Shown here: piece after piece, positions 3,161 to 20,481 of the stretch
How positions within the stretch are numbered: position 1 is the first letter of the stretch
Layout: each line of letters opens with the position of its first letter
IMG/VR virus record: IMGVR_UViG_3300035696_000001
Source: a virus
Length of the DNA: 64,000 nucleotides
Strand: one strand, 5' to 3'
Position numbers and translations under genes: made by a program
Notes under the pieces: generated by a model
The model's database searches: none
Told to the model about the DNA's origin: nothing
What the model saw: the letters and a program-made list of their open reading frames with translations, nothing else

Positions 3161-3217
3161 TAATCGTTCGCATAGACGGGAAACCTAAGCGCGAAAACCG
3201 TGCATTTGTGGGAAACA

Positions 3218-4803: not shown

Positions 4804-4808
4804 TTCAT

Positions 4809-5489: not shown

Positions 5490-5492
5490 GGT

Positions 5493-6161
5493 CTATTTCT
5501 CCCTGGTCAAGGGGACTCGTCTTAGTAAACCGCCCTCTGGCTGTATTTCATCATTGCTCCAGTCGTCGTAGACGGCGCTTACCAAACGACCGCTTAAGTG
5601 TCTTGAGGCGTCCGAGGCGAGGAACTCTACCAGCTTCACCGCCGGCCCCGGAACACCGTCGGATTCCGGGTTCATCTTGCTCCTCACAGACCCCGGAGCG
5701 ACGGCGTTAATCTGTATGTTGAAGTCTTTGAATTCGTCAGCCACGCACTCTACAAACCGGACTAGACCGGCTTTGGAAGCTGCATAGGCGGAATACTGAG
5801 GCCTGCCGTATGCTGCCCCGCCGCCCGAAAAATGGATGATTTTTCCGTAATTCTTGCCGACCATGCCGGGGAGAACGGCTTTGGTGAGATGAAAAGCGCC
5901 CACCAGATTTACGTTGATCGCTTGCACCCAGTGATCGGCGGGGTTAGATGTGACCGTCCCCACGGGGCCGAGCACTCCCGTGCAGTTTATGAGAATGTCG
6001 GGCTGGAAACGCGAAGCCGCCTGTTCGACATCCCCCAAGCTGGTGACGTCCACCCGATCTTGGTAAACTGTTGCTCCGCCATCCAGCATCCTCTGGGCTA
6101 CAGCGCTGCCGATCACCCCGGATGCGCCCGCCACCCAAACTTTCTTGCCAGTGAATAGCAT
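5493..6161 (-). CDS. Short-chain dehydrogenase/reductase (SDR)
   Basis: VAGASGVIGSAVA N-terminus and YAASKAG catalytic YxxxK. Confidence 0.7.
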   Translation of the reverse strand: MLFTGKKVWVAGASGVIGSAVAQRMLDGGATVYQDRVDVTSLGDVEQAASRFQPDILINCTGVLGPVGTVTSNPADHWVQAINVNLVGAFHLTKAVLPGMVGKNYGKIIHFSGGGAAYGRPQYSAYAASKAGLVRFVECVADEFKDFNIQINAVAPGSVRSKMNPESDGVPGPAVKLVEFLASDASRHLSGRLVSAVYDDWSNDEIQPEGGLLRRVPLTREK

Positions 6162-6162
6162 G

Positions 6163-7143
6163 CTACACCTCTACCCACACTTTTGCCGCTGCGCTGGCGT
6201 ACGCCGCCTCTATCAGTCGCTGCGCTTGCAGCCCGTCATGGCTGTTGCTTTGCAAGACGTTTCCCATGATCTCGTTTTCGAAGGCGGCCCAGTCTATTTC
6301 CCAGTGAGCCAGACTGTTTTCAAATGTTTGCGTGACCTCTGTGGGTCGGCTGTGATCCGGCAGCCGGTGCCCCGCAGTTAGTTTTTGGGGGCCGTAGAAC
6401 CCGTCGCGCCCCTCCAGTCTCAGGTAACCGTCGGTCCCAAAGATTTCCAACTCAAAGATGCTCATCCATTGGGTCCAGCTAACGTGAATCTGCGCCATCC
6501 CCTGCTGGGTTTCTAAGAGAAGAAACGCGTTGTCTTCGGTGTTAGAGAATTTGTGGAAGCAGCAATCCGTCCTCGCTAGCACTTTTCGGGGTTCGCCGAA
6601 AAGGTATCGAACTAAGTCCAGCACATGAATGGCTTGTTCAATCAAGACGCCCCCGCCGCTGAACTCTTTTTGGGTACACCAATCCTTCTCGTAGCCGGGG
6701 TGCCCGCCGTGCCCGTAGCGGCACCTGACGAACATGGGGCGTCCTATGTCACCCCTGTCAAGGCGGGCTTTGGCTGCTCGAACATGCGACATGTGCCGGT
6801 AGTTGAATCCGACGTGTAGCATGCGACTATTCTCTTTGGCGCAGGCGCACATGTCTAGGGCCTCTGAAAGATTCAGACCAAGCGGCTTCTCGCACAGGAC
6901 ATGCTTGCCCTTTTTAAGGGCTTCCATGGCTAGCTCAGCGTGGTACTTCGTGGGCGTGGCGATCACGACGGCGTCGATGTCTTTTCGTGAGAGAATTGAT
7001 TCCTTGGTGTCCGCCAAGTCGGGAGATACCTTGCCGTGGGTGGGGTCATGCGCAGCGACAAGCACAGACCGCTCCGAGTTTTTGATCGCCTCGGCGCGGA
7101 ACTGTCCCGCTCGACCCATCCCGAATATAGCTACGTTGATCAT
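6163..7143 (-). CDS. Gfo/Idh/MocA-family NAD(P) oxidoreductase
   Basis: Start at the internal Met MINVAIFGMGRAGQ, giving an ATGA overlap with the upstream gene. EKPL motif. Typical sugar oxidoreductase. Confidence 0.7.
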   Translation of the reverse strand: MINVAIFGMGRAGQFRAEAIKNSERSVLVAAHDPTHGKVSPDLADTKESILSRKDIDAVVIATPTKYHAELAMEALKKGKHVLCEKPLGLNLSEALDMCACAKENSRMLHVGFNYRHMSHVRAAKARLDRGDIGRPMFVRCRYGHGGHPGYEKDWCTQKEFSGGGVLIEQAIHVLDLVRYLFGEPRKVLARTDCCFHKFSNTEDNAFLLLETQQGMAQIHVSWTQWMSIFELEIFGTDGYLRLEGRDGFYGPQKLTAGHRLPDHSRPTEVTQTFENSLAHWEIDWAAFENEIMGNVLQSNSHDGLQAQRLIEAAYASAAAKVWVEV

Positions 7144-8012
7144 TGGCTGGTTTCCCGGATTTTGTCTACGAGTTCCACAGCGTCCAAAAGAGGGGTCTTG
7201 CAGCCGTACCGACGCCCCAATTCCTGGAGGACGTGCAGGTCTCTTATCAAGTGCCCGCCCGAAAGCCCCCAACCGGGGTTCACGTACGACTTTCCCCCCA
7301 CTCTGCTATCCGCTTTGGTGGCCCGAGCTACGTCCATCTCGTCGGCACCCACCTTTTTACATAGGTTTGCTATCTCGTTGGCGAAGCTGATCTGCGTCGC
7401 CAGCATGGTGTTGTGGGCGTGCTTGGCCATCTCAGCGGATCGCAGGCCCATTTGCAGAACGGGACGACCCAACGGCCGGTACAGGCTGACGACGCGCTCC
7501 AAGACTGCGGGGTCGTCCGCCCCTATGATAATCCGGTCTGCGTACAGAAAATTGGACACCGATTGGCCGGGCCGCAAAAGCTCTGGAACGTAAGCCACCA
7601 TTCCGCTTGTCAAACTCTCTGTCGTGCCCACGGGCACCTGAGAAGTTACGCACAGGATGCTGCCTGCGGATCGCAGTTCTTCTATCTTGGAGGCTGTGAC
7701 TAATGTGGATTCCAGCAGCAGCCCCTTCTCGTTAAACGGTAGGTCAATCGAAAGAAACACAAAGTCAGCCTCAGAGACGGCCTCGTTGTCTGTGGTGAAT
7801 CGAAGGCGGCGGAGAAGCAAGTTGTTGCGAAGCAGGGTCTCCAACCCCGGCTCGGGGATAGCGCCGGAATAATGCCCCGAATTCAACGCAGCAACGCAAC
7901 CGGCATCTCCGTCAATGGCCACGACCTGATAGCCTATCTCAGAGAAGCAAGCCGCTTGAACCACGCCCTGATGCTGCAAGCCTACGATGCAAATTTTGGG
8001 GGCGTCGCTCAT
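7140..8012 (-). CDS. UDP-glucose/GDP-mannose dehydrogenase-family protein, C-terminally truncated
   Basis: N-terminal NAD domain and central domain (RSAEMAKHAHNTMLATQISFANEIANLCKKVGAD, GWGLSGGHL). Only 290 aa, so the C-terminal UDP-binding domain is absent. Confidence 0.55.
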   Translation of the reverse strand: MSDAPKICIVGLQHQGVVQAACFSEIGYQVVAIDGDAGCVAALNSGHYSGAIPEPGLETLLRNNLLLRRLRFTTDNEAVSEADFVFLSIDLPFNEKGLLLESTLVTASKIEELRSAGSILCVTSQVPVGTTESLTSGMVAYVPELLRPGQSVSNFLYADRIIIGADDPAVLERVVSLYRPLGRPVLQMGLRSAEMAKHAHNTMLATQISFANEIANLCKKVGADEMDVARATKADSRVGGKSYVNPGWGLSGGHLIRDLHVLQELGRRYGCKTPLLDAVELVDKIRETSQ

Positions 8013-8725
8013 AGTTTGTACCCAGACTCCTGTGCGTCGCGGTAAAACATCCGCACGGTCTCAAGGGAGTATTCGTCGAGGTCTTTGCCCACAAGCGGGA
8101 GCTTTTTCAGGATGTCGGTCGTCGCCGTGATGATGTGGCATCCGACCGCGTCGGCTTGGAATACGTTCAGGAGTTCTCGCGGGGACGCCCAAAGGAGTTC
8201 GGCGTTGGGCGCGACGGAGTTGATGCGTCGCACCGCCTCCGCCATCTCTGGCACGGGGTCGCGCCCGGTGTCTGCGATGCGCCCCGCGAAAACGGAGATG
8301 TAGGCTGGAGCGCCGCCCGTCAGTGCGTCGCAGCACTGATCGACCTGCTCCAAGGTCATGAGAGCGGTCACGTTGACCTTGATGCCGTCGTGGGACAACT
8401 TGTCTACCAAACCGTAGGATTCGACGCCACGAGTATCGGTAACGGGGATTTTGACATAGACATTGCCTCCCCATGAAGCGATCTTGAGCGCCTGTGCTTG
8501 CATCGAGGCGTAATCGTCCGCGAGTACTTCGAAAGAGACGGGACGATCCGGCACGGATTCCAGTAGGTCTTTCGCGAAGGCTTCGTAATCCTTGATGCCA
8601 GCCTTGCGCATCAAGGTAGGATTTGTCGTGAAACCTTTAATGACGGGGTTCTTGTAAAGCTCCAGAATCGTAGCCTTGTCGGCACCGTCGCCGAAGATTT
8701 TCACTTTCAAATCGGTTACGTTCAC
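8009..8725 (-). CDS. tal: Transaldolase / fructose-6-phosphate aldolase family
   Basis: GFTTNPTL signature and ISVFAGRI. Start assigned to the GTG at 8725, in a GTGA overlap with the upstream stop. The ORF-track 5' extension is Arg-rich junk. Confidence 0.75.
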   Translation of the reverse strand: MNVTDLKVKIFGDGADKATILELYKNPVIKGFTTNPTLMRKAGIKDYEAFAKDLLESVPDRPVSFEVLADDYASMQAQALKIASWGGNVYVKIPVTDTRGVESYGLVDKLSHDGIKVNVTALMTLEQVDQCCDALTGGAPAYISVFAGRIADTGRDPVPEMAEAVRRINSVAPNAELLWASPRELLNVFQADAVGCHIITATTDILKKLPLVGKDLDEYSLETVRMFYRDAQESGYKL

Positions 8726-9825
8726 GGCTTGTCTCCCCGCAGAATCCAGCCCACAGCCTCTCTGAGGGATAGTACCGTGGCATCCGGCGTCGTTTCTGGG
8801 GTTTCGTTGCTGGATTCGATGAACACCGTTTTGCAGCCCGCTGCTTTGCCAGCAATGACATCTCGCCAATAGTCGCCGACCATGTAGCTGGAACCAAGGT
8901 CGATATTGAACGCCTCGGCAGCGAGCGCAAGCATGCCCGGCTTCGGCTTCCGGCAGCCGCAACCATCCTCATCGGAATGGTAGCAAACGTAAATGCGGTC
9001 TATGGGGAGTTCGGCAAGTAGCCTCTCGTTCACAGCTTCGACGAGGCTCCTTTTCACGAGACCTCGACCCACGTCGGGTTGATTCGTGACAACGATAAGC
9101 CTGTAGCCTGCTTCCTTGAGGTTGGCGAGGAGGGCCGCTGCTCCGGGAACGATTCTCAACTCCTCGACGGACTTGGGCGGAAACCGGTCCTCGGTCAGGG
9201 TGCCGTCTCGGTCTAAGAATACCGCCCGCTGGGGAAGCATGGACTCCCACTTGGTTTGTGCTTGCTTCAGAAGGGGATGGGAAACGAGGAGATGCCAAAC
9301 CACGGCCTGGAACGCCTCCGAGTGGGGCGTCACGCGGTCCGGGTTCGCCGTGGGGATTACGACGCATGCGTCCGCGACCTTGGCTGTGTACCCGCCGTCC
9401 CGCCCCACGATGCCCACCACGCGGCTCCCGACGCTTCTGGCGTAGTCTATGGCGGACACCAAGTTGGGGCTGACGTTCCTTTCCGCATCGCCTCCGCCCA
9501 CGGATAGAATCAAAAGCGTGTCCGTGGCTTTCAGGCGGCTGCCCCTGAGCCAAGCCGCGAAGACAGTCGCCCACCCTTCGTCGTTGGTTCTGGCTGTCAG
9601 TTCCGCGACGTTGTCGGTGGGGGCGTAGGCTTCGATCCCGGCTATCTTGCGGAAGTCGTTGACAGCGTGGGAAGCGTTGGCGGCGCTGCCCCCCACGCCC
9701 AAAACAAAGAGCCGACCGTTTTTGCGTGTGTCGGCGAGAATCTCAGCGCTGCGCTCTATCGCATCGAGGTCCAGCGCGGCGGCAATCTGCTGCACTTCCT
9801 CAAGGAAGAGTCTCGAAAAACTCAT
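8722..9825 (-). CDS. gmhA-gmhB: Bifunctional sedoheptulose-7-P isomerase (GmhA, SIS) / D,D-heptose-1,7-bisphosphate phosphatase (GmhB, HAD) fusion
   Basis: N-terminal SIS domain LFVLGVGGSAANASH. C-terminal HAD domain with FLDRDGTLTED and VVTNQ. Confidence 0.75.
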   Translation of the reverse strand: MSFSRLFLEEVQQIAAALDLDAIERSAEILADTRKNGRLFVLGVGGSAANASHAVNDFRKIAGIEAYAPTDNVAELTARTNDEGWATVFAAWLRGSRLKATDTLLILSVGGGDAERNVSPNLVSAIDYARSVGSRVVGIVGRDGGYTAKVADACVVIPTANPDRVTPHSEAFQAVVWHLLVSHPLLKQAQTKWESMLPQRAVFLDRDGTLTEDRFPPKSVEELRIVPGAAALLANLKEAGYRLIVVTNQPDVGRGLVKRSLVEAVNERLLAELPIDRIYVCYHSDEDGCGCRKPKPGMLALAAEAFNIDLGSSYMVGDYWRDVIAGKAAGCKTVFIESSNETPETTPDATVLSLREAVGWILRGDKP

Positions 9826-10802
9826 GAATGCACCATGATTGACGTCCCTACGAAGTCGAAACGGATGCGGACTTCGCGCAAACCGGCTCCAGACAATGCT
9901 TTCCGAAGTCGAGCCTTGTCCTCGGCGTAGAGCATCAAGAATCCCCCGCCTCCTGCCCCGACAAGCTTGCCGCCGAGAGCGCCGTTGTCCAACGCTAGCT
10001 GGTAGAGTTTGTCAATATGGGGGTTCGACATGCCCTCGGAACGCGCCCTCTTATGCAACCAGTGCTCGTGCATGAGGGCGGCGAAAGCACGCAGGTCGCC
10101 TCCCACGAGCGCATCCCGGCTCTGGAGACCAAGCTGTTTGGTGTGGTGCATGTTGTCGAGCATGGCGGCGTCGCTTTGCTTCGATTTGATGTCTTGGTCT
10201 GCAAGGATGCTCGACGCCGAGCGTGCATAGCCCGTGAAGAAAAGAAGCAGATTGTCTTCCAGGTTCGCCAGCGCTTCGCTGTTAATCGGCAACGGGCAGA
10301 AGCTCACGCTTCCGTTCCGGTTGAAGTCAAAGCAGGTCACCCCGCCTATCGCCGCGATGTACTGGTCTTGCTTGCCGCAGTGCTGTCCCAAAATGTCGTG
10401 TTCGATGTGGAACGCCTCCTCCGCGAGGTCTTGGCGCGTGATGGTCTGGTTGTGAAAAAAGTGCAGGGCTTGGAGCAAGGCTGTGGTAAAGCTGCCCGAC
10501 GAGCCTAGCCCGGTGCTATGGGGGATGTCGGCTACGTTAGCTATGTCAATAGAGTTCTGGATGCCCGTGAGCCTAAGAGCCTCGCGGATAACCGGGTGTT
10601 CGATCTGATCTACTGTGTCAACTTCCTCTTGCTTTGAGTATTTTAGGATGATCTTGGACTTGAAGGACTCGTTGACCGTGACATACACGTACCTGTTGAT
10701 CGCTGCGGAGAGGACAAAACCGCCGTGGTCTTGGTAGTAGGACGGCAGGTCAGTACCGCCCCCGCCCAAAGTGACCCTCAATGGTGATCGGACAATAATC
10801 AC
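9822..10802 (-). CDS. hddA: GHMP-family sugar kinase, heptose-7-phosphate kinase (HddA)-like
   Basis: MIIVRSPLRVTLGGGGTDLP N-terminus and PHSTGLGSSGSFTTALLQAL GHMP motif. Confidence 0.7.
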   Translation of the reverse strand: MIIVRSPLRVTLGGGGTDLPSYYQDHGGFVLSAAINRYVYVTVNESFKSKIILKYSKQEEVDTVDQIEHPVIREALRLTGIQNSIDIANVADIPHSTGLGSSGSFTTALLQALHFFHNQTITRQDLAEEAFHIEHDILGQHCGKQDQYIAAIGGVTCFDFNRNGSVSFCPLPINSEALANLEDNLLLFFTGYARSASSILADQDIKSKQSDAAMLDNMHHTKQLGLQSRDALVGGDLRAFAALMHEHWLHKRARSEGMSNPHIDKLYQLALDNGALGGKLVGAGGGGFLMLYAEDKARLRKALSGAGLREVRIRFDFVGTSIMVHS

Positions 10803-10848
10803 TCAATTTAAGCCTCAAATTAGGGCTTGAAAGTCTGCAACATAGGAT

Positions 10849-11658
10849 TTAGCCTTCGTAATCGTTGTTTGGCCGCCCGGACGGAATCAGACCTGCGTCT
10901 ATTGCTTTGGATGGGTCAAGCAGGGTGCTTTTTACGTCTTCTTTTCTGGCGGGTTTGTAGACGACCTCGACTCCGCGAAGCTTTCCGAAATGTTCCGCCA
11001 GGTCGCCGAGGCGGGTGGAATGGCCGTGGGCCAAATTGAACGTCCCGGTGTACTCCTCCCCGCTCGCCCGGATAAGCGCTTTACAGATCAGGTCAACGTG
11101 GATGAAGTCTCGAACTTGGTCGCCGCCGAACACCACGATTGGGTTGTCGTTCTTGAAATGGGTGAGCGCCAGCGTCTCGGCTCTTTCTGGAACGTGGCCG
11201 CCGAAGACGTTTCCGAATCTGGCGATGAAGTTGTTGGGGCACAGACGGTTGATGATGCCCTCGGCTATAAATTTGGATTGGGCGTAGGGGTTCAAGCACT
11301 TGTTCCAATGGGCATCCTCTTCCTTGGCGGGCGTCTCTCGCTCCCCGTACACCGCGCCGGAGGAGGAGAAAATGAACTTCTTCACCGTGTTGTTCTGGAA
11401 AAAGGGAATTAGGTTGAGGGCGTTCACTTGCATCATTTTGTCGGCCAGTTCGACGGAGCCGCCGAGGATGGACAGCGCCCCCAAGTGGAACACCACATCG
11501 AATGTGTGGCCCTGGAGGGTGCTGTAGTCTTGTCCTTCTTTGGCGTCGCACACGGAGATTAAGTCGTATGGAAAAGTCCTTGCGACCGCCTTCAGGAGGT
11601 GCGACCCTATGTAACCCGACGTACCTGTCATCAAAATGTGCATTTGAATCTCCTTCAT
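10849..11658 (-). CDS. NAD-dependent epimerase/dehydratase
   Basis: MTGTSGYIGSHL and YAQSKFIAE. Paralog of 2408..3160. Confidence 0.65.
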   Translation of the reverse strand: MKEIQMHILMTGTSGYIGSHLLKAVARTFPYDLISVCDAKEGQDYSTLQGHTFDVVFHLGALSILGGSVELADKMMQVNALNLIPFFQNNTVKKFIFSSSGAVYGERETPAKEEDAHWNKCLNPYAQSKFIAEGIINRLCPNNFIARFGNVFGGHVPERAETLALTHFKNDNPIVVFGGDQVRDFIHVDLICKALIRASGEEYTGTFNLAHGHSTRLGDLAEHFGKLRGVEVVYKPARKEDVKSTLLDPSKAIDAGLIPSGRPNNDYEG

Positions 11659-12431
11659 TTAACCCCGTATTTTTTCTTCAACTGCTCGTACAGGCTGTCT
11701 TCGGGGTAGTTTTTATTGGGGTTTAGCCCTAGATTGCCGTGTTGCCAATACGAGCAGCGAAGATGGATTGCGCGGGACTTTTCCGGGAAAGACCACGACT
11801 GCCCGCCGCTGACGAACCTCACATACTGCTTCCCGTCGAGGCAGCCTATGGCGTCGAAAACAGCCGAATCGCGATAGTAGTCTTGCAGACCCGCCTTTGG
11901 AACCCATTTTCGGAACAGCCCCGGTCCGATGCCCGCGTTTATGTTGCCTATGATTCTAGTGAGGTCGCACCCTTTTTGCGGGTTCCGGCTTTCGATCTCG
12001 TTGACTATGTTCTGGAGAAAAGGCGCTTCGGCTGGGGCTTTGAAAAGACACCCAGTCAAGTAAGCCGGGTCAAGGAGCGACGAGACACCACCGTCCGGGG
12101 ACTCGCAAAGAAGGACATAGGGTTCCGGGAAGTCGAAGGGCTTCAGGCAGACGATGTCCACATCGACATACCAGCCCCCCTTTTTGCAGATTAGATGAGA
12201 CCGGAAATAGTCGGAAAAGTGGTTTGGGCCGGTGAACCACGTATGAGCATCCTCGGGGACTACCTCGCTTGTGGCATGCACCACCGTGCCCTCGGGGATG
12301 CCCCGGCAGTCCGGGTGCGTGGTGTACAAATGGAACTCGTGCCCGTTGCTCAGAAAGGATCGGATCGAGAGCTTTTCGAGGTTCGTCAGTTCGACCCCAC
12401 ACCATACGCCGTTGATGATCTTGTTGTCCAT
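11655..12431 (-). CDS. GT32-like glycosyltransferase (DXD sugar-binding region)
   Basis: WCGVELTNLEKLSIRSFL..GHEFHLY and DVDIVCLKP DxD. ATG at 12431 is preferred over the TTG at 12464. Confidence 0.5.
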   Translation of the reverse strand: MDNKIINGVWCGVELTNLEKLSIRSFLSNGHEFHLYTTHPDCRGIPEGTVVHATSEVVPEDAHTWFTGPNHFSDYFRSHLICKKGGWYVDVDIVCLKPFDFPEPYVLLCESPDGGVSSLLDPAYLTGCLFKAPAEAPFLQNIVNEIESRNPQKGCDLTRIIGNINAGIGPGLFRKWVPKAGLQDYYRDSAVFDAIGCLDGKQYVRFVSGGQSWSFPEKSRAIHLRCSYWQHGNLGLNPNKNYPEDSLYEQLKKKYGVK

Positions 12432-12439
12432 TGAAACGA

Positions 12440-13084
12440 CTATTTTGCGCCTTTCTGCACCCAAGCGGAGTGGTCTGACAGGTTGTTGTAGATTGGTTGT
12501 TTACCTTGTTTGTGGAAAAACTCTAAGGCCGCTTTCTGGCATCCGGGCCAGAGGTAGAAATCGTCAAAATAGATAAAGCCGCCCGGTACGATAGCGTCAT
12601 AAAATTTTTCCAAGCAAACCCTTTCGGATTCGTACCAATCCGAATCAAGGCTTAGCATTGCGATTTGCGGGACTGCAACAGTCGGAAGGGTATCCTTAAA
12701 CCAACCCGCATGGATGTTGACCTTAGCCATATCTGCTCCGACTTTTTGGAGCACCTCCTTGACCGCGTCAACGCTGCCCTTACAACTACCGACGCAGCTT
12801 TCGGCAGTTACGCCGTTGGGCTGCGGAAGGTCTTCTTTGGTGGGTGTAGGTAGGCCCTCAAAAGAGTCAAATAACCAAACCTTTCTGTTAAACTTGGAAT
12901 TAGCTGCGAAGTGGGCTAAGACAGCGCCCAAGCCGCCGTTCCATACACCGCATTCGACCATATCTCCGGGGATGCCTTCTTCCTCTATTCGGCGTGCTAA
13001 AGGTATGTACTGGCGTACTTGGTCGCCGCAAGCCATAGTATAGGGCTGAACTATCTTTTCAAGTTCTTCGTTTGTTAACATCAC
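12440..13084 (-). CDS. TylF/MycF-family sugar O-methyltransferase
   Basis: ECGVWNGG, DSFEGLP and LSLDSDWYE motifs typical of macrocin-O-MTase-like enzymes. Confidence 0.65.
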   Translation of the reverse strand: MMLTNEELEKIVQPYTMACGDQVRQYIPLARRIEEEGIPGDMVECGVWNGGLGAVLAHFAANSKFNRKVWLFDSFEGLPTPTKEDLPQPNGVTAESCVGSCKGSVDAVKEVLQKVGADMAKVNIHAGWFKDTLPTVAVPQIAMLSLDSDWYESERVCLEKFYDAIVPGGFIYFDDFYLWPGCQKAALEFFHKQGKQPIYNNLSDHSAWVQKGAK

Positions 13085-14121
13085 GCGTTTCCCTTTTCAT
13101 CCAGTTTTGTTCTGTCCGCCAACTGCTGTTCCAGCCTGGCGACTTCCTTGCGCAGGATGCCGATTTCTTCTTCTGATTTGTGGAGTCTTTCCTGATGGAG
13201 GGCGTTCTCAGCTTTTAGTTGCTGCTCCACCTCGGCGACTCTCTCACGCAGGCTGCCGTTATCAGCTTTCAATTTTTCGCACTCAGTAACCAGAAATTGC
13301 ATATATTTTTCCTCGCAGTATCGTGCCTGTATCGTGCACTGCCACCTTGACCATTGGTGAAAGATGAAGTACGGTACGATGTCCGTTGCTTCGTTGTCCT
13401 CTATTTCATTATTCATCATCAATCCGTTCGTCAGTTTTCCGTGCGCCTCTACGAACGGGGCAAACACGAACTTATCTTTATATCGGAAGATTTTTGTTCT
13501 GTCCTTGTACTTGTCCTGGCGGATCAGGACGTTCAACCCCTGTTGGTCGCCGAGGCAGTCATCGTGTGTTGGGTGAAACTTTTCCCTTCGCTTGTCCCTC
13601 AAGCACATCGTGTAAATGTCCCGGCACAGGTCGGCGGCAACGTCCGGCAAGCCTGCGATGACCCCAGCGTTGAGGATTTCCTGTCCCATGAGGGACTCGT
13701 GAACTTCGTGGCCAAAGGCGTCGCAAAGCACCTTGTCATTCTCCTCGTACCGTCCGCTGTAGAGGTGCTCTTCGGAGCCAATAGCCAGGCTGTAGCCGCC
13801 GAGGCTGCCCCGTATCCACTCCATTGGGTTGCGCTGGAACACGACATCCTTGGTGTCGATCAGCAAAACGTAGCGAAGAGCAGTAGCTTCCTTGGCTAAG
13901 ATTTCGGAGATGATGCGGAACCGCGCCATGGCGGCTTCCTCCCCTTTGGAATCGACATCGCAGGTCTCGATGTCGTACGCCTCCAGTTTTTTGTCCTTGC
14001 AGTCAGTGATGAGAATACAGCGCCCGTGGTACCCCGACCACCGCAAAGAAACGACAAAAAACTCCAGTTCCTTCCAACCGTAGCCCGCAGCCATGCCGAT
14101 AATGAGATCATTCTCATTCAT
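13081..14121 (-). CDS. Putative glycosyltransferase-like protein with C-terminal coiled coil
   Basis: N-terminal nucleotide-diphospho-sugar-transferase-like region (LLIDTKDVVF). Last ~80 aa are a heptad-rich coiled coil (LKADNGSLRERVAEVEQQLKAEN..). Function uncertain. Confidence 0.35.
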   Translation of the reverse strand: MNENDLIIGMAAGYGWKELEFFVVSLRWSGYHGRCILITDCKDKKLEAYDIETCDVDSKGEEAAMARFRIISEILAKEATALRYVLLIDTKDVVFQRNPMEWIRGSLGGYSLAIGSEEHLYSGRYEENDKVLCDAFGHEVHESLMGQEILNAGVIAGLPDVAADLCRDIYTMCLRDKRREKFHPTHDDCLGDQQGLNVLIRQDKYKDRTKIFRYKDKFVFAPFVEAHGKLTNGLMMNNEIEDNEATDIVPYFIFHQWSRWQCTIQARYCEEKYMQFLVTECEKLKADNGSLRERVAEVEQQLKAENALHQERLHKSEEEIGILRKEVARLEQQLADRTKLDEKGNA

Positions 14122-14831
14122 TGATGCGCCTTGGGGTTGTCCTTCTCGATATGTATGATTTTGGGGACAAAATCAGGCGTATGCCAGATATGGGGCGCTC
14201 TCCAATAGATACGGTTGGGCGGAAACGCATAGGCCGGTGAAAGAGCTATCGCCGGGGGGTTGTGTTCCAAGTAGCAGTTCCAGTGAGACTCATCTTGCCA
14301 TTTCGCCACGATGCCCCTGCCGTCGTCAATGTCGATGTTGCGGGCGAGAATCTTGCATACCGCCAAATACTCGGGGGCCGAGCCGCCTTGGAAGCAGCCT
14401 TGGTAGTAAAAACGGTGGCTTTGGAGAAACGCTGTCGATTCTCGTCTAGTTTCGACATTCGCCCCCTCGCCGCTGGGGATGTAGTTCCGCTCCACACCGG
14501 GGTGAAGCACCGCTGTAATGCCTTTAGCACAGAATTCTTCTTCGAGAATGGGGGCCACGACCCTCATGTCGATGTCGATGTGCATCAGGTAGTCATAACC
14601 GGCAAGCCAGTCCGCTTGGCTGGATATGGCATGGTAGCGCATCATGCCAGCACGCGGCCACCCCAAATGCGGGTACTCCACGACGCGGGCATCATACGGA
14701 GCTTTGCTGTCCGTGAACAGGACTGGGTCGCAGGGCGGGAAGAACTTCCGCAGCGACTCAATGAGGGGCGGAACGAAGCTCAGGAATTCTTGCTTTCCCG
14801 TCGCGATCAGGATTACGGCAATCTTGCTCAT
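14118..14831 (-). CDS. GT6-family glycosyltransferase (ABO blood-group alpha-1,3-Gal/GalNAc-transferase-like)
   Basis: Start at the internal Met MSKIAVIL, in an ATGA overlap. Aligns with the catalytic region of human GTA/GTB: YLMHIDIDM (DxD), RRESTAFLQSHRFYYQGCFQGG, KWQDESHWNCYLE and ALSPAYAFP. Confidence 0.8.
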   Translation of the reverse strand: MSKIAVILIATGKQEFLSFVPPLIESLRKFFPPCDPVLFTDSKAPYDARVVEYPHLGWPRAGMMRYHAISSQADWLAGYDYLMHIDIDMRVVAPILEEEFCAKGITAVLHPGVERNYIPSGEGANVETRRESTAFLQSHRFYYQGCFQGGSAPEYLAVCKILARNIDIDDGRGIVAKWQDESHWNCYLEHNPPAIALSPAYAFPPNRIYWRAPHIWHTPDFVPKIIHIEKDNPKAHQ

Positions 14832-15508
14832 AAATCGTAGCCGCCCCGGTGCAAAAGTAAGACACCGTGAAAAAACCTGTGCTGCCATCCGGGCACATCG
14901 AAAGGATAGCCCTGATCCACGAGATAGTGACTTACTTCGCACGGACAACCCAACTCGTGGCACGGGTACCCCCGGAACGAAGTCACAGAGCAGCGGTCAC
15001 AGTCAGTTGCCAGCCGCTTCACGTCGTCAACGACGACGAAAGAGTCTGGGGCAAATTTTGCGATGGCGGCAAGTTCAAGCGGAACCTGGAACTCGCATGT
15101 CGTATGGGCATTGTCTCCGAAACAATGAGCGTCGAGCCAGAATAGGACACGCTTGCCGCTCGGAGGCGATGCCCATACCAGTGTCGGCAGGAAGTTTGGC
15201 AGCCAAGCGCCGCTGGAGCCGTGAACGCAGTGAACATTGGGCGCATTTTTGAACCTCTCTGTTGCCTTCTGGTACAAATCGTCACTCAGTTCGATAGTCC
15301 AGATTTCATCAAAATGGTTTTGGCAGGCAGCGGGCATGTTTCCCTTGTACGTTCCCGTTTCGACGAGGACGTTCAGGTCAAAGTGCTCGCCCAGCGCGAT
15401 GAGCAAGTCTCTGCGCCAGTTGTCGGTGGGATGCACCATGTCCGTGCCGCCGTAGCTCTTCCAAAACAACAAATCATTCGTAGTTGCAGGATCGCGAAAG
15501 GTGAACAT
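14828..15508 (-). CDS. SAM-dependent O-methyltransferase (CmcI/Methyltransf_24-like)
   Basis: Start at the internal Met MFTFRD. VLVETGTYKGN and FWLDAHC motifs. Confidence 0.45.
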   Translation of the reverse strand: MFTFRDPATTNDLLFWKSYGGTDMVHPTDNWRRDLLIALGEHFDLNVLVETGTYKGNMPAACQNHFDEIWTIELSDDLYQKATERFKNAPNVHCVHGSSGAWLPNFLPTLVWASPPSGKRVLFWLDAHCFGDNAHTTCEFQVPLELAAIAKFAPDSFVVVDDVKRLATDCDRCSVTSFRGYPCHELGCPCEVSHYLVDQGYPFDVPGWQHRFFHGVLLLHRGGYDL

Positions 15509-16122
15509 TAAAGAACCCTCACGCTGACCGCCGCTTCCCCGCTGTCCCCGATTGTGTGCAGGGCAAGGTATTCGTAGGGGCGTCCTTGGATGAATTCCTG
15601 GAACGCCTTGAACTCGTGCTCCCGCCATCCGGGGTAATCCATGTACTCGTCGAACATGATGACCGTCCCCGGCACAATCTTGGGGCCGAAGTTGTCGAAC
15701 ACCGTTTTGGTGGACGAATAAATGTCGCAGTCGATGTGTATAAAAGAGATCGGACCGGGATGCGACCTTGCGAAATCGGGAAGCGTGTCCGCAAACAGGC
15801 CCTTTACGATCTCTACATTTTCTCGAACTTTGGGCACGTCGCATTTGTTGCGCCCCTTTGGGGCGTTGCCCGGCCAATCCTCTGGCAGCCCTTCAAAGGA
15901 GTCGAAGCCGTAAATCTTGGCGGGCGCTACCAAGTCCGCGAGGCAGTTCAAACTACCGCCTGTCGCCACGCCCAACTCCATGATCAGACCCTCTATGGAG
16001 CGGGCGTCAGTGGAATACCTGTAAAAGTAGTGGCGACCGCTGGGGCGGTAAGAAGAATCGTCTGTGGGAAAGAGAAAGCGTGCGACTGTTTTCCCAGAGA
16101 AATAAAGATTCGAGTCGCGCAT
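15508..16122 (-). CDS. TylF-family sugar O-methyltransferase
   Basis: ELGVATGGS, FDSFEGLPE and IHIDCDIYSST. Confidence 0.6.
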   Translation of the reverse strand: MRDSNLYFSGKTVARFLFPTDDSSYRPSGRHYFYRYSTDARSIEGLIMELGVATGGSLNCLADLVAPAKIYGFDSFEGLPEDWPGNAPKGRNKCDVPKVRENVEIVKGLFADTLPDFARSHPGPISFIHIDCDIYSSTKTVFDNFGPKIVPGTVIMFDEYMDYPGWREHEFKAFQEFIQGRPYEYLALHTIGDSGEAAVSVRVL

Positions 16123-16123
16123 T

Positions 16124-16960
16124 TTATAGTTTTATAGCCGGGACTGTACCCGGCTCCCCCATTTTCACCCACCGCTCGGGAACAACGTCGTCGTAGCGGA
16201 CGGGCGCGTTGCCGAACCATTTCTTGGGTGCGATCACGATTCGGTCGGCCTGTGTGTCACCGAGCCAAGCGCCCCACCAGCCAAACGAGCTATTAGGAAA
16301 GATGGCGTGGCGGCACAGGCTCATCAACCACAAGTCCTCGTGCTCGTGCCCCGGACTGTCGCCGAAGCCCATCTTGTTGTGGTCTACGATTGTGCAGTCG
16401 GCAAACCTCTCCCGGCACCCGTCTGGGTCGTCCGAAAAGACGAAGAATTTCGCATCGGCAATACGTTCGCGTACGTATTGCATCGCCTCTGCATAATAGT
16501 CCCACGTCATGTTGCCGTGGAACGCCGCCTGCCCCGCGCCGAGGTAGTCGGTTCGCCGCACATGGATGAACGCGCTCTGCGGCGCTGCCGCGATTGCGTC
16601 AGCAACCCGCTTGGTCTGCTCGCCGACCGGGTTTCTGAGCGTAAAATCCCTTCGGATCAGGTCGGGTTCTGGCTCAAAGTATTTTTCCGTCTGCCAGCAG
16701 CCCCGGAAATTTGTCCCGTTCGGTACTTTGTAAACTTGCGGATCGAAAATCAGGTGCGATTCGTCGAAAAAAGGCCCTCCGCCTCCCCCGAACCGTACGT
16801 CGCGGACATTGAAGACGTCAAGCCCGTAGGCGCGGTGGCATCCGGGCCCCAAACCTACCTTGTAGAACAAAACATCCTCCCTTCGCACCCGCGAAACGCA
16901 GCGACCGAAAGCGTACTGGAACATCTGGTTGCCCAGGCCTCCATTGAGCCTAACCAACAT
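16124..16960 (-). CDS. GT11 alpha-1,2-fucosyltransferase (FutC/WbsJ/FUT2-like)
   Basis: Canonical motif I GGLGNQMFQYAF. HVRRTDY, FVFSDD and SSFGWWGAWL motifs match H. pylori FutC and E. coli WbnK. Confidence 0.85.
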   Translation of the reverse strand: MLVRLNGGLGNQMFQYAFGRCVSRVRREDVLFYKVGLGPGCHRAYGLDVFNVRDVRFGGGGGPFFDESHLIFDPQVYKVPNGTNFRGCWQTEKYFEPEPDLIRRDFTLRNPVGEQTKRVADAIAAAPQSAFIHVRRTDYLGAGQAAFHGNMTWDYYAEAMQYVRERIADAKFFVFSDDPDGCRERFADCTIVDHNKMGFGDSPGHEHEDLWLMSLCRHAIFPNSSFGWWGAWLGDTQADRIVIAPKKWFGNAPVRYDDVVPERWVKMGEPGTVPAIKL

Positions 16961-17585
16961 TACCCATCTCCCTGTGCTTCTTGTACATCCACGACACGTT
17001 GAAAGTTCGTCCTACAGTAGCGGAACAAAAGTGCGATGTTATCTCGTCGTTGTCACCGTACCGGATGTCGTCTTTCGCGGTGAGCCGACCTTCTGCGACC
17101 GCCGCCCCCACTATTTGGCCGATCCATTTGTCCTCGGCCCACGTATCAGGTTCCAGGCGCACGACCACCTCCATGGCACGCCGCGACATCCAATAGCCTG
17201 CCCCGCCCGATGCCCACGCATACCCGCCCTCCCTGACCCCCGGCACGCCTATCGGCCCGTTGAACCTGCCGATTTGGTCATATCCCTGCGGGTCGTAGGC
17301 AGCTAGCTTGGACATTACTGCGTAGGTGTCCGTGTCCGCTAAAAAAGCGTGGTCGTAGTCGTGCGCCAGTACCCACCCGAATATGGCGCGGGTCTTGTGC
17401 GGCAAGTCCAGATAGGCGTCGCCGCAATCCAACGGCTCCTCGTCCGGCGCAAGTTCGCCCCCGCCCCGCCCAACAAAAAACCTGTAATCAACTGGGCAGT
17501 TCTTCAGCCACGTGTCACGTACGGCTTGGTTGAATCCGTTGCGGCAATCGCGATAGCAGCTTTTTACGGCAATCAGTCTTTTCAC
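16950..17585 (-). CDS. Fringe-like (GT31-type) glycosyltransferase, paralog 1
   Basis: LIAVKSCYRD..VRDTW and DTDTYA DxD. ATGA overlap with the upstream paralog. Confidence 0.55.
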   Translation of the reverse strand: MKRLIAVKSCYRDCRNGFNQAVRDTWLKNCPVDYRFFVGRGGGELAPDEEPLDCGDAYLDLPHKTRAIFGWVLAHDYDHAFLADTDTYAVMSKLAAYDPQGYDQIGRFNGPIGVPGVREGGYAWASGGAGYWMSRRAMEVVVRLEPDTWAEDKWIGQIVGAAVAEGRLTAKDDIRYGDNDEITSHFCSATVGRTFNVSWMYKKHREMGNVG

Positions 17586-18223
17586 AGTATGCCTTTCGCC
17601 TTTTCGTGCACGGCATACAGGTTTGCCCTGTCACGTAGGTTCGTCAAAGAATTCCGTTCGTGGTTGTGACAGGTGATGACGTCGTTGTCGGGCTGGGGGC
17701 CTACCATTGTTCCCCTGTCAGTGCCGATCCTGTACCGGGGATCATGGAACGGTAGGATTCCGGCTTGCCTGAGCACGTAGCGCACCCACCAATCCTCAGC
17801 GCCGGAGCAAGCCGCAATTTCCCCCCTCGCCAAGAGCGCCTCCATCGCCCTGCGGCTGAGCCAATATCCCGTTCCGCCAAAGACGCTGTCGTCCCCCTGT
17901 ACGAATCCCGAATAGTCGTGCCTCTCAAAGCCCGAGGCGAGAAGGCGCGGGACGTGGACGTAGGTGTCCGTATCGCACCGGAACAGGTTGTCGTAGCCGT
18001 TCGCGAGCGCCCACGAAATTGACCCGAGTATTTTCAGACGAAGCTCAGAGCCGCCGCCATCGGGCACGTCCAAGAAGGTCTCGTCTGCTTCCGCATCCGG
18101 CTCCTTGGGGACTCCCAAAAAGAACCTGGTGTCCGCAGCCGGGGCGCTCAGCCACGTGTCACGGATTTGCGCATGGCACCAGCGGTCGCGATGGCAACTC
18201 TCTATGGCGATGAGGGGTTTCAC
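17582..18223 (-). CDS. Fringe-like glycosyltransferase, paralog 2
   Basis: GTG start in a GTGA overlap. VKPLIAIESCHRD..IRDTW and CDTDTYV. Confidence 0.55.
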   Translation of the reverse strand: MKPLIAIESCHRDRWCHAQIRDTWLSAPAADTRFFLGVPKEPDAEADETFLDVPDGGGSELRLKILGSISWALANGYDNLFRCDTDTYVHVPRLLASGFERHDYSGFVQGDDSVFGGTGYWLSRRAMEALLARGEIAACSGAEDWWVRYVLRQAGILPFHDPRYRIGTDRGTMVGPQPDNDVITCHNHERNSLTNLRDRANLYAVHEKAKGIL

Positions 18224-18930
18224 AGCGCACCCGCCGAGAGTTGGTGCGCCCTGTACATCATGCTCGGGTTGTAGGCACCCGTGCCGCAGCCGAGGTGTAC
18301 GCTGATCCCGTCGTATCCGTAGAGTTGGAGACGGTCGCCCTTGAACAGGTAACGGGGGTCGTGGTAGCCGTGCATCCCCAAGGGAAGCAGGATATTTGGA
18401 ATCCAAAGGTCTTCGGCTGGGTTGCCCTTGTTGTCGAGCCGCCTCCAGTCTAAGGGTGCGGCAACGATGGCTTCCATTGCGCGTTTGCTAGTCCAATAGC
18501 CGCATCCCCCCGAACAATAGGGGTAGACCCCTCGGGGATCGCAGTACTCGCTCAGGGTTTGCCCGTCCGCTGGCAGATAGCCTTCCTGCGGATGCAGGGG
18601 AAAGTGGCCCACGTAGTCACTCCGGTCAAAGCCGGAGACGAGCAGACGTCTCGGCGACAGGTAGGTGTCGCGGTCAGCCTTGAACACCCATTCATATTCG
18701 TGCTCAAGCGCCCATTTCCGTATGGCTTGCGACTTTTCCGGCAGGTGGGGGTAGTCATCCGGCACGTCAAGACGCTCCTCGTCGGGGAGCAGCGTCCGGC
18801 TGCCTTGCCCCACGAATATCTTGTAGTCCAGCCCCGGCACCATGTGCTGCATCCACGTGCGCCGCATGGCGTCGTGGCAGCCGTTTGCCGCGTCGCGCTC
18901 GCAACTCATCACGCCTATGAGAATTTTCAC
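18220..18930 (-). CDS. Fringe-like glycosyltransferase, paralog 3
   Basis: GTG start in a GTGA overlap. VKILIGVMSCERD..MRRTW and ADRDTYL. Confidence 0.55.
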   Translation of the reverse strand: MKILIGVMSCERDAANGCHDAMRRTWMQHMVPGLDYKIFVGQGSRTLLPDEERLDVPDDYPHLPEKSQAIRKWALEHEYEWVFKADRDTYLSPRRLLVSGFDRSDYVGHFPLHPQEGYLPADGQTLSEYCDPRGVYPYCSGGCGYWTSKRAMEAIVAAPLDWRRLDNKGNPAEDLWIPNILLPLGMHGYHDPRYLFKGDRLQLYGYDGISVHLGCGTGAYNPSMMYRAHQLSAGAL

Positions 18931-19676
18931 GCCCCCACCCAATCCTTGATGCCCTCTTTCCTCAGCATAATCGTGTGCCCTGCTGCGAAAGCCCGCCTGC
19001 GGAACCGCCCGTAGCGGGGGTCCTGCACGTCCGCCCCGGTGCCCAGCTTGAACGTGTCCACGCTCCAGCCGGGCAGCCACACCGTGACCCTGCCCGCCTT
19101 CTTCATGTGCCAGAAGAACTGCCCGTGCTCCCCGCCTATGGGGCGGACCTCCTCGTCCCACGGCACCCCGCGCAGCGTCGATGCGCGTGCGAGGAACGCG
19201 TTCACCACGAGGTCGCACCGCTGGTAGGGCGACCCGTCCGGCACCAGGCGGATTTCGCGGATCACATTCTTTTCGGCGTCAAAAACAAGATTTGATTCGT
19301 ACGGGTTGCCGTCCACGCGCCCGCCCACCAAGTCGATTTCGGGGTGCGTGTCGAGGATGTCGGCGGCTTTGGTCAAGCTTTCTTTGAACCCTTTGGTCGC
19401 GAAGTCGAAGTCGTCAGCGCCGCAGTACCAGTAAGGCGTCTCGCACAGGAGCACGCCACGGTTGCGCTTCGCCGTCAAGCCCGAGTCGAACGGCAACCAA
19501 GCCCACTGGGTGTTGAGCATGGGCGCACGCGGAGTCAAGTCCATGCCGCTCCCGCTGTCGTCCACGACGATCACTTGGCATTCCGGCAAGCTCATGCGGA
19601 CGCTGTCGAGGCACGCCCGCAGATAGCCCGGACGTAAGAAGGAGGATATAAACACTGAAATTTCATTAAGTGGCAT
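18927..19676 (-). CDS. GT2-family glycosyltransferase
   Basis: ISVFISSF, VVDDSGSG and GLTAKRNRG GT-A motifs. Confidence 0.65.
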   Translation of the reverse strand: MPLNEISVFISSFLRPGYLRACLDSVRMSLPECQVIVVDDSGSGMDLTPRAPMLNTQWAWLPFDSGLTAKRNRGVLLCETPYWYCGADDFDFATKGFKESLTKAADILDTHPEIDLVGGRVDGNPYESNLVFDAEKNVIREIRLVPDGSPYQRCDLVVNAFLARASTLRGVPWDEEVRPIGGEHGQFFWHMKKAGRVTVWLPGWSVDTFKLGTGADVQDPRYGRFRRRAFAAGHTIMLRKEGIKDWVGA

Positions 19677-19809
19677 GTGCCCTCACTTTCTTTTCGCGGT
19701 AACGGCGTGCTTTCTCTGCTCCAGTCAACGGTCTCTCACCTATGCGACGATAAGTACGGTGTCCTCCTATCCTCGCGGAGCCACATGTACGTGTAGTAGA
19801 CCTTGTCCA

Positions 19810-20481
19810 TCACAAATCTCCCCCCACCAACTGCTGGATGGTCTCGAACGGAACCGGCTTGTATTCGTTGCTGGTAAAGTTTTTTCGGCAGGCGTTCGTG
19901 TCGTGTATGCTGGCAATGACGAGCTTGGGGTCGAACAAATCCAATTTCGCCTCGGCAGGCAGTTTCCTCTGCAAATTATAGTCGGCACCCGCAACGATAT
20001 GGTCGAACTTGTTCTGCTCCCAGACGGATTTCCGAAACGCAATAGCCCCCAGCCAGCCGATGGACTTCGGGCTGGTGTACTGCCATGCCTTCTGCATGTC
20101 CTTCCGGTAGTAGTACAACGTGGACGTGCCCGTCATCTGCACCTGCTGCCGGTCGATCATGGGCTGTATCTGGCGTGCAAGGCGGTCTGTTGAATAGACG
20201 TCGTCATCGTCCCAAACGAGGAGAAAAGCCCCAGACGCCAGTTCGATGCATTGGTTGAGTTTGATCCCATGGTTGTAAACGTTCGATTGCCATGTGTACT
20301 TGATCCTCGGGTCATCCGGCAGCAGGGGCTTGACCGGCTCGGTCGAATCGTCAAGTATCAAAAGCTCCACGACCCAGTCAGCGGGGTACTGCTGCGCCTG
20401 AAAGCAGCGGATCGCACGCGGGATGAACCCACAGCGGTTGCGCGTGGGCATTAACGCTGATACGATTAAGGGGCTAGGCAT
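19810..20481 (-). CDS. GT2-family glycosyltransferase
   Basis: VSALMPTRNR and LVWDDDDV. First gene of the island, 133-bp gap to the next gene. Confidence 0.65.
   Translation of the reverse strand: MPSPLIVSALMPTRNRCGFIPRAIRCFQAQQYPADWVVELLILDDSTEPVKPLLPDDPRIKYTWQSNVYNHGIKLNQCIELASGAFLLVWDDDDVYSTDRLARQIQPMIDRQQVQMTGTSTLYYYRKDMQKAWQYTSPKSIGWLGAIAFRKSVWEQNKFDHIVAGADYNLQRKLPAEAKLDLFDPKLVIASIHDTNACRKNFTSNEYKPVPFETIQQLVGGDL

Follow-up and report, generated by a model that had tools for sequence, protein, structure and literature searches.

Four methyltransferase genes within a 23-gene phage operon that probably builds and tailors a complex glycan

In a 64,000-nucleotide stretch of viral DNA (IMG/VR record IMGVR_UViG_3300035696_000001; "the window" below means the whole of this stretch), we identified four genes for S-adenosylmethionine (SAM)-dependent methyltransferases (MTs) that lie within one tightly packed operon of 23 genes on the minus strand, at positions 2408–20481. 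We consider it probable that the four enzymes tailor a single complex glycan, built in the host cytoplasm by the products of this phage operon, with a protein of the virion surface as its most likely acceptor. Minus-strand genes run unbroken through the first 20.5 kb of the window, and 2408–20481 is treated as one operon because its genes share a strand and their reading frames abut or overlap throughout. The original prediction held that four MTs embedded among glycosyltransferases (GTs) imply an O-methylated glycan. The embedding in a glycan-synthesis cluster was borne out, and sugars are suggested as the substrates by enzyme family and gene neighbourhood.

The four open reading frames (ORFs) are present as predicted at 12440–13084 (MT1), 14828–15508 (MT2), 15508–16122 (MT3), and 4809–5489 (MT4), all on the minus strand, and all encode class I MTs. 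Profile alignments retain SAM-binding motif I in all four, and the prediction therefore withstands the first objection that could be raised against it, namely that the proteins lack this motif. Chance ORFs were considered as an explanation for any of the four and rejected. Family assignments with Pfam used the gathering cut-offs (in bits: TylF, 23; Methyltransf_24, 26.3; Glycos_transf_2, 23.3; Glyco_transf_11, 23.9; Glyco_transf_6, 25; PF04488, 23; and PF01762, 23).

MT1 and MT3 had been labelled TylF/MycF-type, and both exceed the TylF cut-off in hidden Markov model searches. The motifs quoted for them are likewise in place, VECGVWNGG and FDSFEGLP in MT1 and MELGVATGGS and FDSFEGLPEDW in MT3. 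MT1 is a canonical member of the TylF family (PF05711, E 4.6e-43, 147.8 bits, profile positions 67–248 of 264). Among solved structures, it is closest to the chains 4cdz/5i10, MycF, and NovP (E 1e-22 to 1e-28), of which we take the first to be SpnH, the spinosyn rhamnosyl 4'-O-MT. The ECGVWNGG, LDSDWYES, and FDDF segments of MT1 align with ETGVWRGG, LDGDLYES, and IDDY of 5i10/4cdz, corresponding to the patterns ExGxxxG, LDxDxYES, and DD, and the acidic DxD...DD residues are presumably metal ligands, as we understand them to be in MycF and NovP. The protein is 35% identical to mtfC of the Mycobacterium avium glycopeptidolipid cluster. A search for viral relatives with this single protein found none, and the matches in the phage collection were mostly cross-hits to the family of MT3.

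MT3 matches TylF with 51.8 bits over profile positions 173–237 only and Methyltransf_24 with 52.5 bits over its full length. It also matches phrog_6608 (E 2.3e-45) and is closest, among solved structures, to the TDP-rhamnose 3'-O-MT CalS11. Residues E49, G51, G55, D74, D131, D133, Y135, and D158 are invariant in a 22-member alignment of the family. MT1 and MT3 are distant paralogs (32% identity, E 3.6e-16). Judging from their membership of the TylF family, we predict that both methylate sugar hydroxyls.

MT2 had been described as CmcI-like. Pfam gives no match to it at E ≤ 0.01, and no CmcI chain is among the best 50 PDB matches listed by Foldseek; the label is therefore unsupported. Membership in the CmcI/cephalosporin hydroxylase family (PF04989) was rejected, as neither the model nor the listed structures match. 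A word-indexed search returned only five relatives, and a profile built from these five matched 10,291 representatives (E ≤ 1e-3) in a set of 1.84 billion proteins. MT2 therefore belongs to a large family that has no Pfam model of its own and whose members show only sub-threshold matches to Methyltransf_24, Methyltransf_11, and Methyltransf_25. Compared with the PDB, a 60-sequence profile of this family gives 52 matches at E ≤ 1, nearly all of them class I MTs and spanning motifs I–III. The top match is ErmAM (1.5e-5), whose EIGTGKG aligns with VETGTYxG of the profile, followed by KsgA, PIMT, TrmR, and COMT.

An AlphaFold2 model of MT2 (mean predicted local distance difference test score, pLDDT, 72.8) matches TrmR, CCoAOMT-like proteins, and catechol O-MTs at E 3e-8, and the best 50 listed of its 672 Foldseek matches at E ≤ 1e-3 are almost all chains of MT families. 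Invariant residues of the family are E50, G52, T53, G56, E73, D126, H128, and D161, and D162 is kept in at least 90% of members. We take D126/H128, at the end of strand 4, and D161/D162, at the end of strand 5, to be the metal or catalytic positions of COMT-type enzymes. The families of MT2 and MT3 align in hhalign with a probability of 2.3%, although ETGT/EFGV, WLDxH/HIDxD, and DD/DE line up, and we therefore do not claim that MT2 is a TylF relative. The structural model instead suggests an unnamed class I family with a fold closest to that of the cation-dependent O-MTs. Among the best 50 matches listed in BFVD, the nearest viral structures are MTs of giant viruses.

For MT4, which had been proposed as a fourth class I MT, the structural model and the homologs agree with that assignment. 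The protein has no Pfam match of its own and belongs to PHROG 3603, annotated as "unknown function". Some of its 183 homologs match PF08241 or PF13489. Its profile signal against the PDB is weak, and the significant matches are all MTs; VLDIGGG aligns with ILDLGCG of pavine N-methyltransferase at an E of only 0.0024. The AlphaFold2 model (pLDDT 86.6) has almost exclusively class I MT-family chains among the best 50 Foldseek matches listed.

The families of MT2, MT3, and MT4, in no particular order, have 175, 270, and 373 relatives in IMG/VR. We compared the neighbourhoods of the best 80 loci per family, giving 240 viral loci (L numbers below), with all operon proteins used as queries against them; another 80 loci of the MT2 family in bacteria bring the total to 320. 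Homologs of the window's four MTs number one per locus in 230 of the viral loci, two in 10, and more in none. The statement that multiple sugar O-methylations are rare in phages thus holds as far as multiplicity is concerned. It does not hold for a single MT beside GTs, an arrangement common in IMG/VR and seen for these families in 113 mycobacteriophage records.

The family of MT2 is closely associated with GT11 enzymes. A GT11 gene lies within 8 kb in 37/80 viral loci (median distance, about 1.5 kb), compared to 1/80 and 2/80 in the other two sets (Fisher test, 1.5e-12 and 2e-11), and in bacteria GT11 lies within 6 kb in 18/80 loci. The two are fused in an MT-GT11-MT protein of the same family (P0179), and a GT2-MT fusion is encoded by the ORF at 7317–8537 of L216. 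GDP-mannose 3,5-epimerase (GME) at 40% identity or more occurs in 15/80 loci of the MT2 set versus 0–1/80 in the others. The phage GMEs, 43–52% identical among themselves, travel with GT11 and an MT2-type enzyme in L170–L175, L180, L181, L185, L186, L192, L203, L218, L231, and L244. The GT11 of phages may therefore transfer L-galactose rather than L-fucose. The bacterial MT-GT11 pairs have weaker matches only, to short-chain dehydrogenase/reductase (SDR) proteins (22–38% identity) that may be GDP-fucose-synthase-like. One homolog of MT2, AAD44214.2, comes from M. avium serovar 2, where its gene adjoins gtfB and GDP-fucose genes in the glycopeptidolipid cluster. The analogy drawn earlier to mycobacterial glycolipids is apt in that two of the MTs, MT1 (through mtfC) and MT2, have homologs in such a cluster.

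The family of MT3 is instead found with heptose genes. Transaldolase, GmhA/B, or HddA-like genes lie within 10 kb in 16/80 of its viral loci versus 0/80 in the MT4 set (1.3e-5). In L062 the module reads cytidylyltransferase-like protein, GmhA, GmhB, transaldolase, SDR, Gfo/Idh/MocA oxidoreductase, MT, GT1, and kinase; it adjoins genes for SpeD, PhoH, and a T4-type RNase H. For MT4, GT1-type enzymes are the commonest immediate neighbours in viral contigs (15/66), and the setting is one close to genes for tail fibres. Laminin_G_3, collagen, DUF2793, and terminase proteins are also encoded next to it. A mini-cluster in L093 unites an MT4-type and an MT2-type enzyme with GT11, GT31-like, and UDP-glucose dehydrogenase-like genes.

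These data bear on the possibility that one or more of the MTs, most plausibly MT4, have proteins, small molecules, or nucleic acids as substrates and are only co-located with the sugar genes. The closest folds of MT4 are indeed alkaloid N-MTs, UbiG, RdmB, and NodS, GTs make up only the said 15 of 66 immediate neighbours of its relatives, and MT2 resembles TrmR, a tRNA MT, and COMT as much as it does any sugar MT. We nevertheless regard this explanation as improbable: all four genes are inside a contiguous sugar operon with abutting frames, the GT11 association of the MT2 family is strong, replicated, and accompanied by GT fusions, GT1 enzymes outnumber every other neighbour family of MT4 relatives by a wide margin, and in L093 both families occur together with GT11 and a GT31-like gene.

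The closest relatives of the cluster as a whole are in L214/L216 (contigs of 237 and 317 kb), L182–184/L239, L170–172, and L168, which share GT2, GT11, GT6, GT32-like, and GT31-like proteins that are 42–57% identical. Domains that the window encodes as separate proteins are also joined into multi-domain ones in the related jumbo-phage clusters (L216, 7317–8537 and 9915–12383; L184, 5802–7337 and 8578–10275). They are apparently GT2+MT, GT32-like+GT31-like, GT2+GT11, and GT6+GT31-like fusions, and recall the three-domain A064R protein of chloroviruses.

The operon also carries genes for sugar precursors, all on the minus strand. A transaldolase (8009–8725; TAL_FSA, E 5e-44; gene call of 238 amino acids) is the putative supplier of sedoheptulose-7-phosphate. 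It is accompanied by a GmhA-like SIS isomerase fused to a GmhB-like HAD phosphatase (8722–9825; SIS_2 and HAD domains), with 49–61% identical homologs in viral heptose modules, and by an HddA-like GHMP kinase (9822–10802; GHMP_kinases_N/C), probably a heptose-7-phosphate 1-kinase. The isomerase, kinase, and phosphatase of the GDP-D-glycero-alpha-D-manno-heptose pathway are thereby present, at the level of family only, and the earlier comparison with methylated heptose is supported by a heptose pathway in the same operon. The same trio, including the HddA-like kinase, recurs with transaldolase in viral loci, the transaldolase lying inside the heptose module in L008, L056, L057, L062, L064, L174, and L236. 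Some phage "talC" genes may therefore feed sedoheptulose-7-phosphate to heptose synthesis and not to the pentose-phosphate pathway, an alternative reading of this auxiliary metabolic gene.

A second precursor is indicated by the protein encoded at 3829–4803, which matches plant GMEs over its full length (8sg0/2c59, E 1.5e-96, residues 3–322; next family, 2.5e-31). This similarity strongly supports its assignment as a GME, an enzyme of GDP-L-galactose/GDP-L-gulose synthesis. Five further genes encode oxidoreductases or epimerases. Two GalE-like nucleoside diphosphate (NDP)-sugar epimerases/reductases are paralogs with 41% identity: a short SDR at 10849–11658, assigned from Pfam and PDB comparisons, with homologs that adjoin an HddA-like kinase in L168, L014, L023, and L027, and the last gene of the operon at 2408–3160 (Epimerase, E 4.6e-29). 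A classical short-chain dehydrogenase (5493–6161; adh_short, E 2.9e-31) and a Gfo/Idh/MocA oxidoreductase (6163–7143; assigned by Pfam) lie upstream of MT4, the latter of a type that travels with SDR and heptose genes in L056/57/58/62. A UDP-glucose/GDP-mannose dehydrogenase-like protein of 290 amino acids (7140–8012) matches PF03721 and PF00984 only and is without the C-terminal domain. Weak homologs of it accompany the MT families in L093, L153, L044/45, and L078–81.

About ten soluble GTs are encoded in the operon. The first gene (19810–20481; Glycos_transf_2, E 1.1e-13, 51.9 bits) is a GT2 with 40–42% identical homologs in phage clusters L214/L216/L184/L172, and is followed by a weaker GT2-like gene (18927–19676; 21.4 bits, just under the Glycos_transf_2 cut-off) with a homolog in L168 (33%, 1e-24). 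Four GT31/Fringe-like paralogs share 31–36% identity with the protein of 18220–18930 as reference (E 1e-20 to 1e-35). They are that protein, with sub-threshold Galactosyl_T/Fringe matches; 17582–18262, assigned by paralogy and with an uncertain start (the public gene call has 213 amino acids); 16950–17585, assigned by paralogy with no Pfam match of its own; and 3218–3844, which matches Galactosyl_T (PF01762, 27.4 bits). The GT6 and GT11 said to be interleaved with the MTs are both above their cut-offs. The former (14118–14831; Glyco_transf_6, E 9.7e-17, 61.2 bits) has 47–50% identical homologs in L214/L216/L184, and the latter (16124–16960; Glyco_transf_11, E 2.3e-20, 73.5 bits), of the alpha-1,2-fucosyltransferase family, has 48–57% identical homologs in related phage clusters. 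A GT32-like enzyme (11655–12464; Gly_transf_sug with DXD, PF04488, 29 bits) has homologs of 32–44% identity in related clusters. All these genes are on the minus strand. The "other GT" proposed at 13081–14121 (minus strand) did not stand up. This protein, with a C-terminal coiled coil, has no Pfam or PHROG match, matches only coiled-coil proteins in the PDB, and has one homolog in 5.8 billion proteins; its identity as a GT is unsupported, as there is no family or structure match.

The classifiable GTs of the window (GT2/6/11/31/32) are all in families that we take to be GT-A. They thus differ from the GT-B enzymes resembling T4 beta-glucosyltransferase, a point that matters for the possibility that the sugars are placed on phage DNA as hypermodified 5-hydroxymethylpyrimidine glycans, with the MTs tailoring DNA-bound sugars. 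There is precedent in phage clusters, composed of kinase/HAD, cytidylyltransferase, and GT-B genes, that put mono- or di-heptose on 5-hydroxymethylcytosine (5hmC; Pyle et al., bioRxiv 10.1101/2023.12.21.572611). The T4-type RNase H and PhoH genes next to simpler loci such as L062 would fit this idea, as would the dCMP deaminase and the nucleoside deoxyribosyltransferase-like protein of the window. Among those ORFs of the window that were scanned with Pfam and PHROGs there was, however, no cytosine C5-MT, TET-type dioxygenase, or dCMP hydroxymethylase, and ten GTs imply a glycan far larger than the one to three sugars reported on DNA. We consider a DNA-bound glycan very improbable.

The 25 proteins tested are all without a hydrophobic segment (maximum KD19, 1.41), and the operon is without an initiating phosphoglycosyltransferase, flippase, polymerase, or ABC exporter. 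These absences argue against a role for the operon in remodelling a host surface glycan (lipopolysaccharide [LPS] O-antigen, capsule, or S-layer) during infection so as to block superinfection or alter receptors. The "LPS genes" of cyanomyoviruses are frequently explained in this way. Phage GTs and epimerases have also been discussed as modifiers of the host surface (PMC12801897). The combination of GT2, GT11, GT6, and a heptose pathway is typical of O-antigen and capsule loci, the MT2 family is widespread in bacteria beside GT11, and the window encodes a PMT_2-type GT-C membrane glycosyltransferase at 33619–34995. This last gene is split over two adjacent ORFs (33619–34254 and 34267–34995, plus strand), between those for an RNA ligase and a CCA-adding enzyme, and no other membrane-bound glycosylation enzyme was seen in the window. 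The GT-C gene is, however, 13 kb from the operon, on the other strand, and among RNA-repair genes. In addition, related clusters adjoin terminase or tail-fibre genes, and a virion structural gene directly follows the operon. Host-surface remodelling is therefore, in our judgement, unlikely, if less so than the two alternatives above.

The structural gene in question is part of a co-directional pair directly downstream of the operon. A 170-residue Ser/Thr-rich protein (1046–1558, minus strand; noted for its composition) is encoded first and abuts the gene for a repeat-rich protein of 1794 amino acids, rich in Ser, Thr, Val, and Gly, of which the N-terminal 348 are encoded in the window (1–1044, minus strand). 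The full-length protein is present on contig L248 (10515–15899); through residues 1361–1639 it matches phrog_1645, "virion structural protein" (E 1.7e-11). This candidate glycan acceptor is nearly devoid of charged residues (S+T 23.6%, K+R+E 4.2%). Between the operon and these genes lies one for an HNH homing endonuclease (1551–2336, minus strand; phrog_12434/655), which is missing from the otherwise identical contig L248 and is a mobile insertion outside the pathway. A second HNH element (58024–59388, plus strand) is inserted in the N-terminal part of the window's dCMP deaminase gene. Related clusters lie 4–6 kb from a large terminase gene in L216, L184, L172, and L093 and adjoin a collagen-like tail fibre gene in L170. 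Soluble GTs and tailoring enzymes in or beside the structural module, the arrangement by which virus-encoded virion glycosylation is recognised, are thus what these genes display.

We propose the following scheme for a methylated virion glycan. Transaldolase would provide sedoheptulose-7-phosphate, which the GmhA-GmhB fusion and the HddA-like kinase would convert to heptose-1-phosphate, and the SDR, Gfo/Idh/MocA, and GalE-like enzymes would remodel the NDP-heptose. GME would supply GDP-L-galactose, and the roughly ten soluble GT-A enzymes would assemble the chain. Going by family and neighbourhood, MT3 would act on the heptose branch and MT2 would work with GT11 on a residue of the L-galactose/L-fucose type. 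MT1 would serve as a TylF/MtfC-type sugar O-MT in the pathway, and MT4 as a phage-typical MT that is elsewhere paired with a GT1 enzyme, possibly also methylating oxygen. The acceptor would be a virion surface protein, the 1794-residue Ser/Thr-rich protein encoded directly downstream being the leading candidate.

Several observations weigh against this scheme. The heptose nucleotidyltransferase (HddC or RfaE-II type) was not found in the window, where no credible ORF has a GxGxRL-type motif and a tblastn search with the cytidylyltransferase-like protein of L062 gave no match; its gene may lie in another part of the genome, or the host may provide the enzyme. Promoter and terminator signals at the ends of the operon are no more numerous than in shuffled sequence and so provide no tie to the structural genes, and the phrog_1645 match covers only the residues given of the 1794. 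The structural neighbours of the MT4 model include small-molecule N- and C-MTs, and sugar O-methylation is therefore a candidate activity for MT4. The orphan at 13081–14121 is unexplained within the glycan model, and, given its PMT_2 GT-C protein, the phage may modify envelope glycans as well. Some loci are related, although each is taken as independent in the neighbourhood counts; the glycan, its methyl positions, and its acceptor are predicted here from genes.

Proteins identical to those of the window are found in metagenomes of the peat type, on contigs of up to 894,233 bp, and megablast of positions 10000–20000 against 50,697 phage records gave zero matches. To our knowledge the largest phage genomes are about 735 kb, which the 894,233-bp contig would exceed if it represents a single phage genome, although misassembly or an origin from a host could equally account for it. 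A bolder form of the proposal, which we advance tentatively and think doubtful as a whole, is that a phage of giant-virus scale (contig of up to 894 kb) needs no host glycosylation machinery to produce a heptose/L-galactose glycan O-methylated at several positions, which the fibre-like 1794-residue virion protein would carry as a bacteriophage's counterpart of mimivirus fibrils and chlorovirus capsid glycans, and that MT2 defines a large, unnamed family of fucose/L-galactose O-MTs working with GT11 in phages, giant viruses, and bacteria. Confirmation of the role proposed for the operon would establish huge phages as possible carriers of self-contained glycan factories, on a par with those known from giant viruses.

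Assignments are also offered here for three poorly annotated MT families present in hundreds of viral contigs, one of which exceeds 10,000 representatives and is covered by no Pfam model. Mycobacteriophage virions are reportedly glycosylated, and their glycans are said, in the title of the 2023 work of Freeman et al. (cited in PMC12582341), to affect immune recognition; methylated sugars might, speculatively, further change antigenicity or recognition.

The remainder of the window has genes of phage type, among them an SNF2 helicase and the dCMP deaminase with its HNH insert. An RNA-repair set on the plus strand comprises Ro60/TROVE (22750–24174), polynucleotide kinase-phosphatase (29817–30902), an Rnl1-like RNA ligase (32316–33434), and the CCA-adding tRNA nucleotidyltransferase (34992–36317); tRNA and Rfam scans of the whole window, including Y RNA, detected nothing. 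Peptide deformylase (28555–29088), the nucleoside 2-deoxyribosyltransferase-like protein (51684–52154), and a NifU/IscU-like Fe-S scaffold (54244–54666), all on the plus strand, are encoded among genes without detectable homology. A bacterial O-antigen island was rejected as an identity for the stretch in view of the phage RNA-repair and nucleotide genes, the relatives beside terminases, and the lack of export genes.

The Campylobacter jejuni capsule, with its GDP-heptose epimerases/reductases and O-methyl heptoses, offers a bacterial parallel, in which the heptose nucleotide is made by a route with an HddA-type kinase, tailored by SDR-type redox enzymes, and O-methylated. That capsule is lipid-linked and exported, and, in contrast, no HddC, cupin epimerase, or export genes were found here, sequences of the two systems not having been compared. 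Phage-encoded sugar activation with GTs, including those for heptose, is shared with the DNA glycan hypermodification clusters of Pyle et al., which place GT-B DNA glycosyltransferases beside 5hmC-forming enzymes and add one to three sugars; neither feature was found in the window. The antibiotic enzymes TylF, MycF, NovP, and CalS11 and the Mtf proteins of M. avium have in common with MT1 and MT3 the ExGxxxG SAM motif and the acidic DxD...DD/DE residues. The antibiotic enzymes, however, are 250–280 amino acids long, whereas the phage proteins have 204–214 and are without the N-terminal region, and the MT3 family goes with heptose genes and not with 6-deoxyhexose genes.

Closer parallels are found among viruses. 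Mycobacteriophages of cluster O (Corndog and Smooch) encode an O-MT, 44% identical to MT3, together with three GTs. The genes are flanked by those for the portal and the capsid protease, within the virion structural module, and methyl/glycan modification of the capsid has been proposed for these phages (PMC4351075). As 70-kb siphoviruses they have one MT, three GTs, and no sugar-nucleotide synthesis genes. The window differs in encoding four MTs, drawn from three or four families, along with about ten GTs and at least two routes to sugar precursors, in a phage with a contig that reaches 894 kb. The chlorovirus PBCV-1 makes 2-O- and 3-O-methyl-rhamnose with dedicated sugar O-MTs (PMC9614988). 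Chlorovirus A061L and A064R (two GT domains and an MT domain, A064R-D3) and the Mimiviridae clusters represent virus-encoded, host-independent glycosylation of virion proteins in the cytoplasm. The GT-MT fusions in relatives of the window's cluster (L216, P0179) resemble A064R; A061L and A064R are not among the best 50 BFVD matches listed for the MT2 model. These are, in contrast, eukaryotic viruses with other GT and MT families and with rhamnose, viosamine, and bacillosamine.

Viral glycosylation with sugar MTs is thus known in chloroviruses and predicted in Mimiviridae and cluster O phages, and in kind the operon therefore has precedents. Set against the described systems, it stands out by its scale and composition in a bacteriophage. 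At least three families are represented among the four MTs, there are about ten GTs and two precursor pathways, and the operon has a place directly upstream of a giant Ser/Thr-rich structural protein. Its GT6, GT11, GT31/Fringe, and GT32 enzymes are of families better known from eukaryotes.

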